This document shows, one piece after another, positions 4,508 to 5,062 of a stretch of 64,000 bases of DNA (its first letter is position 1; the number at the start of each line of letters is the position of its first letter). Source of the DNA: Escherichia coli. Lineage in GTDB: Bacteria > Pseudomonadota > Gammaproteobacteria > Enterobacterales > Enterobacteriaceae. The position numbers were made by a program, and so were the translations under genes. The notes under the pieces were generated by a model. That model did no database searches and had not been told where the DNA came from. It saw nothing but the letters and a program-made list of their open reading frames with translations. The stretch lies in the NCBI RefSeq assembly GCF_003018255.1, contig NZ_CP027440.1; one strand, written 5' to 3'.

Positions 4508-5062
4508 ATGAAAATTAAAACTCTGGCAATTGTTGTTCTGTCGGCTCTGTCCCTGAGTTCTACAGCGGCTCTGGCTGAAACTACACCCACGACGGTAAAT
4601 GGTGGGACCGTTCACTTTAAAGGGGAGGTTGTTAACGCCGCTTGCGCAGTTGATGCAGGCTCTGTTGATCAAACTGTTCAGTTAGGGCAGGTTCGTACAG
4701 CATCGCTGGCACAAGAAGGAGCAACCAGTTCTGCTGTCGGTTTTAACATTCAACTGAACGATTGTGACACTACTGTTGCAGACAAAGCTGCTATTGCCTT
4801 CCTTGGTACCGCAATTGATGGAACTCATCCTAACGTATTAGCTTTGCAGAGTTCAGCTGCGGGTAGCGCAACAAAAGTTGGTGTGCAGATCCTGGACAGA
4901 ACGGGTGCTGCGCTGGCGCTGGACGGTGCGACATTTAGTGCACAAACAACCTTGAATAACGGTACCAACACCATTCCGTTCCAGGCGCGTTATTATGCAA
5001 TCGGCGAGGCAACCCCGGGTGCTGCTAATGCGGATGCGACCTTCAAGGTTCAGTATCAATAA
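4508..5062 (+). CDS. fimA: Type 1 fimbrial major subunit FimA
   Basis: 184-aa ORF with signal peptide and pilin fold signature, conserved C-terminal ...ATFKVQYQ; first gene after fimS. Confidence 0.93.

Follow-up and report, generated by a model that had tools for sequence, protein, structure and literature searches.

The question raised by the fim locus of this Escherichia coli chromosome is which form of the major type 1 pilin it encodes, and how that form arose within an operon that is closely related to the one in K-12. The window (the whole 64,000 bp stretch of contig NZ_CP027440.1 that was analysed) was found to carry an open, intact and in-frame reading frame on the plus strand at coordinates 4508–5062. 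We put at about 95% the probability that this is an intact, orthologous copy of the chromosomal fimA gene of E. coli, present as an already catalogued allele that is a recombinant mosaic.

The protein encoded at 4508–5062 scored 186.6 bits against the FimA equivalog model NF011741 of NCBIfam (curated cut-off 140) and 115.7 bits against the Pfam Fimbrial family PF00419 (cut-off 25.6), and it matched a solved E. coli FimA in the PDB with an E value of 1.5e-96. Because of these three results, a chance open reading frame was discounted. No other NCBIfam equivalog model reached its own cut-off with this protein. The gene is annotated as fimA, with product WP_001561332.1, at identical coordinates in the collinear record NZ_AP045067.1, and a complete genome that is 100.0% identical across the first 25 kb has fimA annotated exactly at 4508–5062. 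Both the order of the open reading frames and the collinear annotated records place fimA at the expected position in the fim operon, the locus reading nanC, fimB, fimE, fimS, fimA, fimI, fimC, fimD, fimF, fimG, fimH, gntP. The genes are as follows.

2351–2953, plus strand: fimB, switch recombinase, intact, 98.5% identity to K-12
3431–4027, plus strand: fimE, switch recombinase, intact, 98.7% identity to K-12
4508–5062, plus strand: fimA coding sequence, 184 codons and a stop, type 1 fimbrial major subunit (from the open reading frame and its translation)
5127–11109, plus strand: fimI, fimC, fimD, fimF, fimG and fimH, intact, 97.3–99.0% identical to K-12

All nine fim genes are without internal stops and the operon is complete, with the chaperone and usher genes fimC and fimD both intact. 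From its sequence, the fimA product is predicted to be the major pilin, the subunit from which the type 1 pilus rod is built by donor-strand exchange. In fimG (9684–10187), the K-12-type start ATGAAATGG at 9684 is intact and gives a product of 167 aa with a signal peptide; the RefSeq annotations of fimG in isolates JNE23-011 and 2017.09.02CC use a later start at 9744 (147 aa), which looks like an annotation quirk and not a truncated gene.

The phase-variable switch lies directly upstream of fimA.

4075–4388, no strand assigned: fimS invertible promoter element, 314 bp, with 9-bp inverted repeats TTGGGGCCA and TGGCCCCAA
4094–4123, minus strand: best sigma-70-like site in fimS, TTGAGA-18-TATGAT, 10/12 matches, directed towards fimE

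The fimS element is collinear with that of MG1655 and in the same orientation, with only a few substitutions, and it appears to be in the phase-OFF orientation in this assembly. The sigma-70-like site is presumably the fimA promoter (after Olsen and Klemm 1994). As this promoter-like site faces fimE, fimA would not be transcribed from fimS in this orientation. The OFF orientation is a normal phase-variable state and says nothing on the function of fimA.

FimA of MG1655 (GenPept accession number NP_418734.1; 182 aa; from NC_000913.3) was used as the K-12 reference, and the features of the window gene relative to it are as follows.

4508–4576, plus strand: signal peptide, codons 1–23, protein identical to K-12 in the alignment
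4577–4588, plus strand: variable tip of the mature pilin, GAA ACT ACA CCC (E-T-T-P)
4589–4636, plus strand: donor-strand part of the N-terminal extension, amino acids the same as in K-12
4751–4850, plus strand: central hypervariable block, 26 nucleotide differences from K-12 in 100 bp
4940–5008, plus strand: C-terminal variable block, SAQ ... YYAIGEA here and SSE ... YFATGAA in K-12

K-12 FimA (PDB accession numbers 2M5G, 5OH0, 6C53 and 6Y7S) is the product of the same gene at the same locus, and 167 of the 184 columns in the protein alignment are identical. The remainder consist of 15 substitutions and of a 2-residue gap, K-12 being two residues shorter at the N-terminus. Numbered along the K-12 precursor, the substitutions are A24T and A25P at the N-terminus, followed by N87T, S90D, V94I, A103G, G104T, T106P, N121K, T135A, S143A, E144Q, F161Y, T163I and A165E. 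Amino acids identical to K-12 include the signal peptide, the donor strand, both cysteines (NAAC... and ...NDCD) and the C-terminal strand. At the DNA level, the window gene differs from K-12 fimA by a 6-bp insertion at ~4578–4583 and 50 substitutions, and identity to K-12 and K-12-derived genomes is 89.9–90.1%. The search that covered the K-12-derived genomes recovered 4,716 full-length fimA alleles. An earlier note on this DNA had claimed a FimA allele with substitutions and a short insertion near the mature N-terminus and with further differences at internal positions. The alignment, in which the two proteins are not identical, bears this out, as two of the 15 substitutions lie in the N-terminal tip and 13 lie beyond it. 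The claim that the strain carries a non-K-12 fimA allele also holds, since fimA is 90% identical to its K-12 counterpart and the eight other fim genes are 97.3–99.0% identical. The label 'serovariant' given to this FimA in the same note would be a prediction from the sequence.

The string of residues reported as the mature N-terminus was present at residues 23–39 of the translation, but its leading A still belongs to the signal peptide, which ends with it. The mature chains of K-12 FimA in the PDB are 159 residues long and start AATTVNGG, and that of the enterotoxigenic E. coli (ETEC) FimA in PDB 9IUG has 161 residues and starts ETTPTT. From these chain starts, the mature window protein is predicted to begin with ETTPTT and not AETTPTT, with cleavage after A23 by homology. 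In K-12 the junction reads ...AALA|AATTVNGG, and the 2-residue gap falls immediately after the signal peptide. The tip at 4577–4588 stands in place of K-12 GCT GCC (A-A), a net insertion of 6 bp or two residues, though the placement of the gap is ambiguous: it falls at 4578–4583 in the DNA alignment, at residues 24–25 in the pairwise protein alignment and at residues 26–27 (T-P) in an alignment of 116 FimA sequences. The designation of T-P as the extra residues 26–27 takes as its reference the commonest form in that panel, ADTT--TVNGG, from which the 184-aa class differs at the tip solely by the extra Thr-Pro. Given its 184 aa against 182 aa, and a gap that abuts the signal peptide, the window FimA belongs to the class with a mature chain of 161 residues.

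An N-terminal insertion of two amino acids has already been described by Kisiela et al. 2013 (PMC3604780), and two additional N-terminal residues were described in the FimA of UTI89 by Spaulding et al. 2018 (PMC5798934). The UTI89 protein (WP_000695580.1; 184 aa) has the same Thr-Pro insertion and is a published example of the class, but its mature chain starts DTTPTT and not ETTPTT, and it differs from the window protein by 16 amino acids, with a nucleotide identity of 89.5%. A further FimA sequence of 187 aa (P0080) carries AATTV twice in tandem (AATTV-AATTV) where the mature chain begins, which suggests that the tip is a hot spot for insertions and deletions. The fimA gene in NZ_CM183655.1 (isolate GmF052) spans 579 bp.

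The panel comprised 116 distinct FimA sequences, the window and K-12 sequences included, and 37 of these have two extra residues at the tip. Four N-terminal forms were common: ADTTTVNGG (55 sequences), an 11-residue form (23), the K-12 form AAATTVNGG (14) and another 11-residue form (7). The frequency of the insertion in complete genomes was estimated using a 60-nt probe across it, a match being counted when it covered at least 80% of the probe. Matches were found in 689 of 5,426 complete E. coli genomes; only ~57–60% of the probe (34–36 nt to the right of the insertion) aligned with insertion-less alleles. As the best match was only 80–90% identical, and possibly gapped, in up to 53 of the 689 records, the insertion is carried by ~636–689 genomes, about 12–13%. 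Some sequences that bear the labels E. albertii and E. marmotae belong to the 184-aa Thr-Pro class as well.

The exact 555-bp DNA allele was found in four of the 5,426 complete genomes, those of isolates JNE23-011, JNE112863, DETEC-S792 and 2017.09.02CC, which come from Japan, Viet Nam and elsewhere. In each the DNA and protein (RefSeq WP_001561332.1; UniRef A0A1Q4PBQ1, entry A0A1Q4PBQ1_ECOLX) are identical to those in the window and the gene has the same position in the operon. The exact protein is also encoded on 749 public contigs in a collection of 15 billion proteins. Comparison with known fimA alleles, which the earlier note had proposed as the check, thus recovers an exact catalogued non-K-12 allele. 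The window allele is therefore already known, the exact protein from RefSeq and the insertion from two papers. A sequencing or assembly artefact, or a decaying pseudogene, has next to no probability as an explanation for the insertion and substitutions. Nothing specific points to it, the OFF orientation of fimS being the only feature to be set on its side, and it is already refuted by the identical DNA in four independent complete genomes and by the wide occurrence of the protein. The intact, in-frame reading frame, the conservation of the cysteines, donor strand and C-terminus, and the intact state of all the other fim genes also count against it.

Outside fimA, the window chromosome differs from these four genomes, for example by ~1% in the flanks in 2017.09.02CC and in the hsd region in JNE23-011. 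In a blastn comparison with 2017.09.02CC there was one difference in 4501–6500, and the flanks differed by up to ~3% per 500 bp. The same fimA allele thus occurs in slightly different chromosomal backgrounds.

The JNE23-011 genome is 100.0% identical to the window over the first 25 kb and 99.4% identical over 13,581–32,455, with the mismatches beyond 25 kb. The sole difference in the first 13.6 kb is at position 9120 in the 3' end of fimD, which is G in the window and C in JNE23-011. A segment of ~10 kb (32456–42376) is replaced relative to JNE23-011; symE lies within it, as do the following.

32545–34638: DUF262/GmrSD-type restriction open reading frame, 697 aa, intact
35247–40951: EcoAI-family type I hsdS/M/R genes

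For the 30–45 kb part of the window, the best match in complete genomes was only 99.6% identical. The mdtM gene (27810–29042, minus strand; 410 aa) is intact in the window and has an internal stop in the near-identical JNE23-011. A pseudogene annotation carried over from that genome was therefore rejected.

The divergence of fimA from K-12 stands out from that of its neighbours. Synonymous divergence (dS) from K-12 is 0.27 in fimA and 0.03–0.09 in the neighbouring genes, and DNA divergence is ~10% in fimA and 1–2.7% in the eight other fim genes. Differences inside fimA fall into three clusters, at 4551–4600 (the N-terminal tip), 4751–4850 and 4900–5008. After 5008, the next difference from K-12 occurs only at 5205, and the fimA–fimI intergenic region (5063–5126) is base-for-base the same as in K-12 despite the 10% divergence of fimA. 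This region includes an equivalent of a small RNA annotated in K-12 as b4838 (FimR2), 11–45 nt past the fimA stop.

5073–5107, plus strand: FimR2 (sRNA) equivalent in the fimA 3' flank, sequence identical to K-12

In the segment 4748–4843 (window codons 83–114, equivalent to K-12 codons 81–112), there are 16 synonymous and nine nonsynonymous differences from K-12, and dS is ~1.6. In this segment dS is saturated, and the divergence from K-12 is far older than that of the surrounding genes. This is a sign of a very old allele lineage that may predate the species and that has been kept and shuffled by recombination.

Comparison with other E. coli alleles located the boundaries of the shared blocks. 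The window sequence is identical to that of MS1170 over 4488–4951, and the 10 differences that follow all lie in the 72 bp of 4952–5023. The FimA of MS1170 and its relatives (WP_000695585.1; P0003, on 669 contigs) therefore shares the DNA for ETTPTT and the central block, but has a K-12-like C-terminal block with YFATGAA where the window protein has YYAIGEA. Isolate 203740 is identical to the window over 4409–4626 and again over 4942–5016, with 46 differences between. Relative to SCU-115 there are 18 differences in 4555–4714 and then just three as far as 5149. The central block (4751–4850) is near-exact in MS1170 and SCU-115 and very different in 203740 and K-12. The C-terminal part at 4952–5008, which separates the window allele from the otherwise identical MS1170 allele, is common to 203740 and, bar one base at 4952, to SCU-115. 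Permutation p values in the maximum chi-square test were <=0.0005 for the comparison with MS1170, 0.001 for SCU-115, 0.0015 for 203740 and 0.002 for UTI89; the comparisons with K-12 and PS10-3 were not significant. In 203740, the end of fimE is 59 bp nearer to fimA than in the other strains retrieved, and in MS1170 fimE is frameshifted.

The window allele is thus a mosaic of existing blocks, exchanged between alleles by homologous recombination, and not a product of recent point mutation. Its N-terminal block matches that of 203740, its central block those of MS1170 and SCU-115, and its C-terminal block those of 203740 and SCU-115. If positive selection had instead acted, with no recombination, on recent stepwise point mutations and a newly arisen 6-bp insertion in a K-12-like ancestor, the differences would be expected at positively selected or highly variable sites, and this is where they are concentrated. 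Independent changes in N-terminal length, such as the duplication in P0080, also indicate that insertions and deletions do arise at the tip. However, synonymous divergence is raised as well, both across the gene and most strongly in K-12 codons 81–112, and each variant residue is common to at least three other panel sequences. Long blocks are also base-for-base the same as in other alleles, with sharp breakpoints. As the DNA of the common blocks is identical, and does not use different codons for the same residues, convergence does not account for them. Stepwise mutation is effectively refuted as an origin and is considered highly improbable.

The amino acid changes that distinguish the mosaic allele from K-12 fall at positions that vary in FimA generally. 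All 17 differing columns between the window and K-12 proteins are within the 30 highest-entropy columns of the 116-sequence panel, and mean entropy was 1.26 bits in the differing columns and 0.14 bits in the rest (Mann-Whitney p = 7e-12). The window allele had no residue that was rare in the panel, every one being present in at least three other sequences. Five sites in FimA (N64, A109, T117, S120 and F138) were found to be positively selected by Spaulding et al. 2018 (PMC5798934), and the substitutions N64T, S120A and F138Y (mature K-12 numbering) affect three of them. That study also placed all non-conserved FimA residues on the exterior of the rod, and Kisiela et al. 2013 (PMC3604780) reported that fimA has many diverse alleles, recombines within the gene and moves horizontally, and that the variable residues of FimA lie on the outer surface.

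In the pairwise comparison with K-12, dN/dS was 0.18 over the whole gene and <=0.39 in any block, and never above 1. As a pairwise dN/dS below 1 cannot by itself carry a claim of positive selection, its use as a test for this was dropped. The earlier view that fimA is under diversifying selection is upheld, with a qualification: the changes are confined to variable columns and include three sites selected according to the literature, but the pairwise ratio is 0.18 and the evidence for selection at individual sites comes from the literature. The window and K-12 genes represent old, recombining allele classes in which the amino acid differences are confined to known hot spots. On the literature and published structures, the variable residues would be surface exposed and their diversity may be kept by host immune pressure.

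The window FimA most likely functions like any FimA, judging from its sequence and from related pilins. It would be exported via its Sec signal peptide, folded on the chaperone FimC and polymerised at the usher FimD, where the unchanged N-terminal strand would serve in donor-strand exchange. The role of the N-terminal strand of FimA in this exchange is described in Spaulding 2018 (PMC5798934), and the donor-strand segment encoded at 4589–4636 corresponds to the strand appended in the self-complemented construct 2JTY. The variant residues would decorate the exterior of the rod, and the two extra residues (Thr-Pro) would belong to the exposed tip at the N-terminus, a segment that is disordered in the rod structure of K-12. 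There, the two leading residues are disordered, the three after them point outwards free of contacts, and the tip ranks with the most variable regions of FimA (Spaulding 2018, PMC5798934).

The ETEC FimA in 9IUG, a rod structure determined by cryo-EM, has a mature chain of 161 residues with the same N-terminus and the same C-terminal YYAIGEA block as the window protein. It differs at ~13 internal positions, for example with KQTG for AQEG, SVATKAAV for TVADKAAI and SAHPK for GTHPN. According to a bioRxiv paper citing 9IUG, 49 of 50 conserved water positions are common to this rod and the K-12 rod. A FimA of the ETTPTT class thus forms a normal rod in 9IUG, and by likeness the window allele would be expected to do so.

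The Thr-Pro tip, which is encoded by about one in eight E. coli genomes and also occurs under the labels E. albertii and E. marmotae, could alternatively mark a functionally distinct class of rod and not be a neutral antigenic decoration, the extra residues and the substitutions altering rod mechanics, assembly kinetics, or recognition by the host or by phage. The maintenance of the 184-aa class at ~13% of complete genomes, and its presence under those other species labels, would fit such a role. The N-terminal residues of P pili act as a 'staple' and touch other subunits (Spaulding 2018, PMC5798934), indicating that the tip can matter in related rods. However, the outward projection of the tip residues, free of contacts, in the K-12 rod (PMC5798934) and the near-identical set of conserved waters in the 9IUG and K-12 rods both argue against it. 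The single-residue changes of Spaulding and colleagues were made in the UTI89 allele, which has the two extra residues, and no effect of these is reported there (PMC5798934). A distinct function is therefore regarded as unlikely. If it were true, the class would differ, for example, in its recognition by antibodies, host receptors or phage, or subtly in the mechanics of the rod, and a trans-species balanced polymorphism would lie behind the saturation of synonymous sites in the central block.

Read as an ordinary FimA encoded by a mosaic gene, the allele is of little import beyond the description of the strain. The strain carries a non-K-12 surface variant of FimA, and antisera or vaccines directed against K-12 FimA might cross-react with it incompletely. 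The window fimA gene is a clean example of old blocks reshuffled by recombination within a conserved operon, as already set out for FimA in PMC3604780 and PMC5798934.
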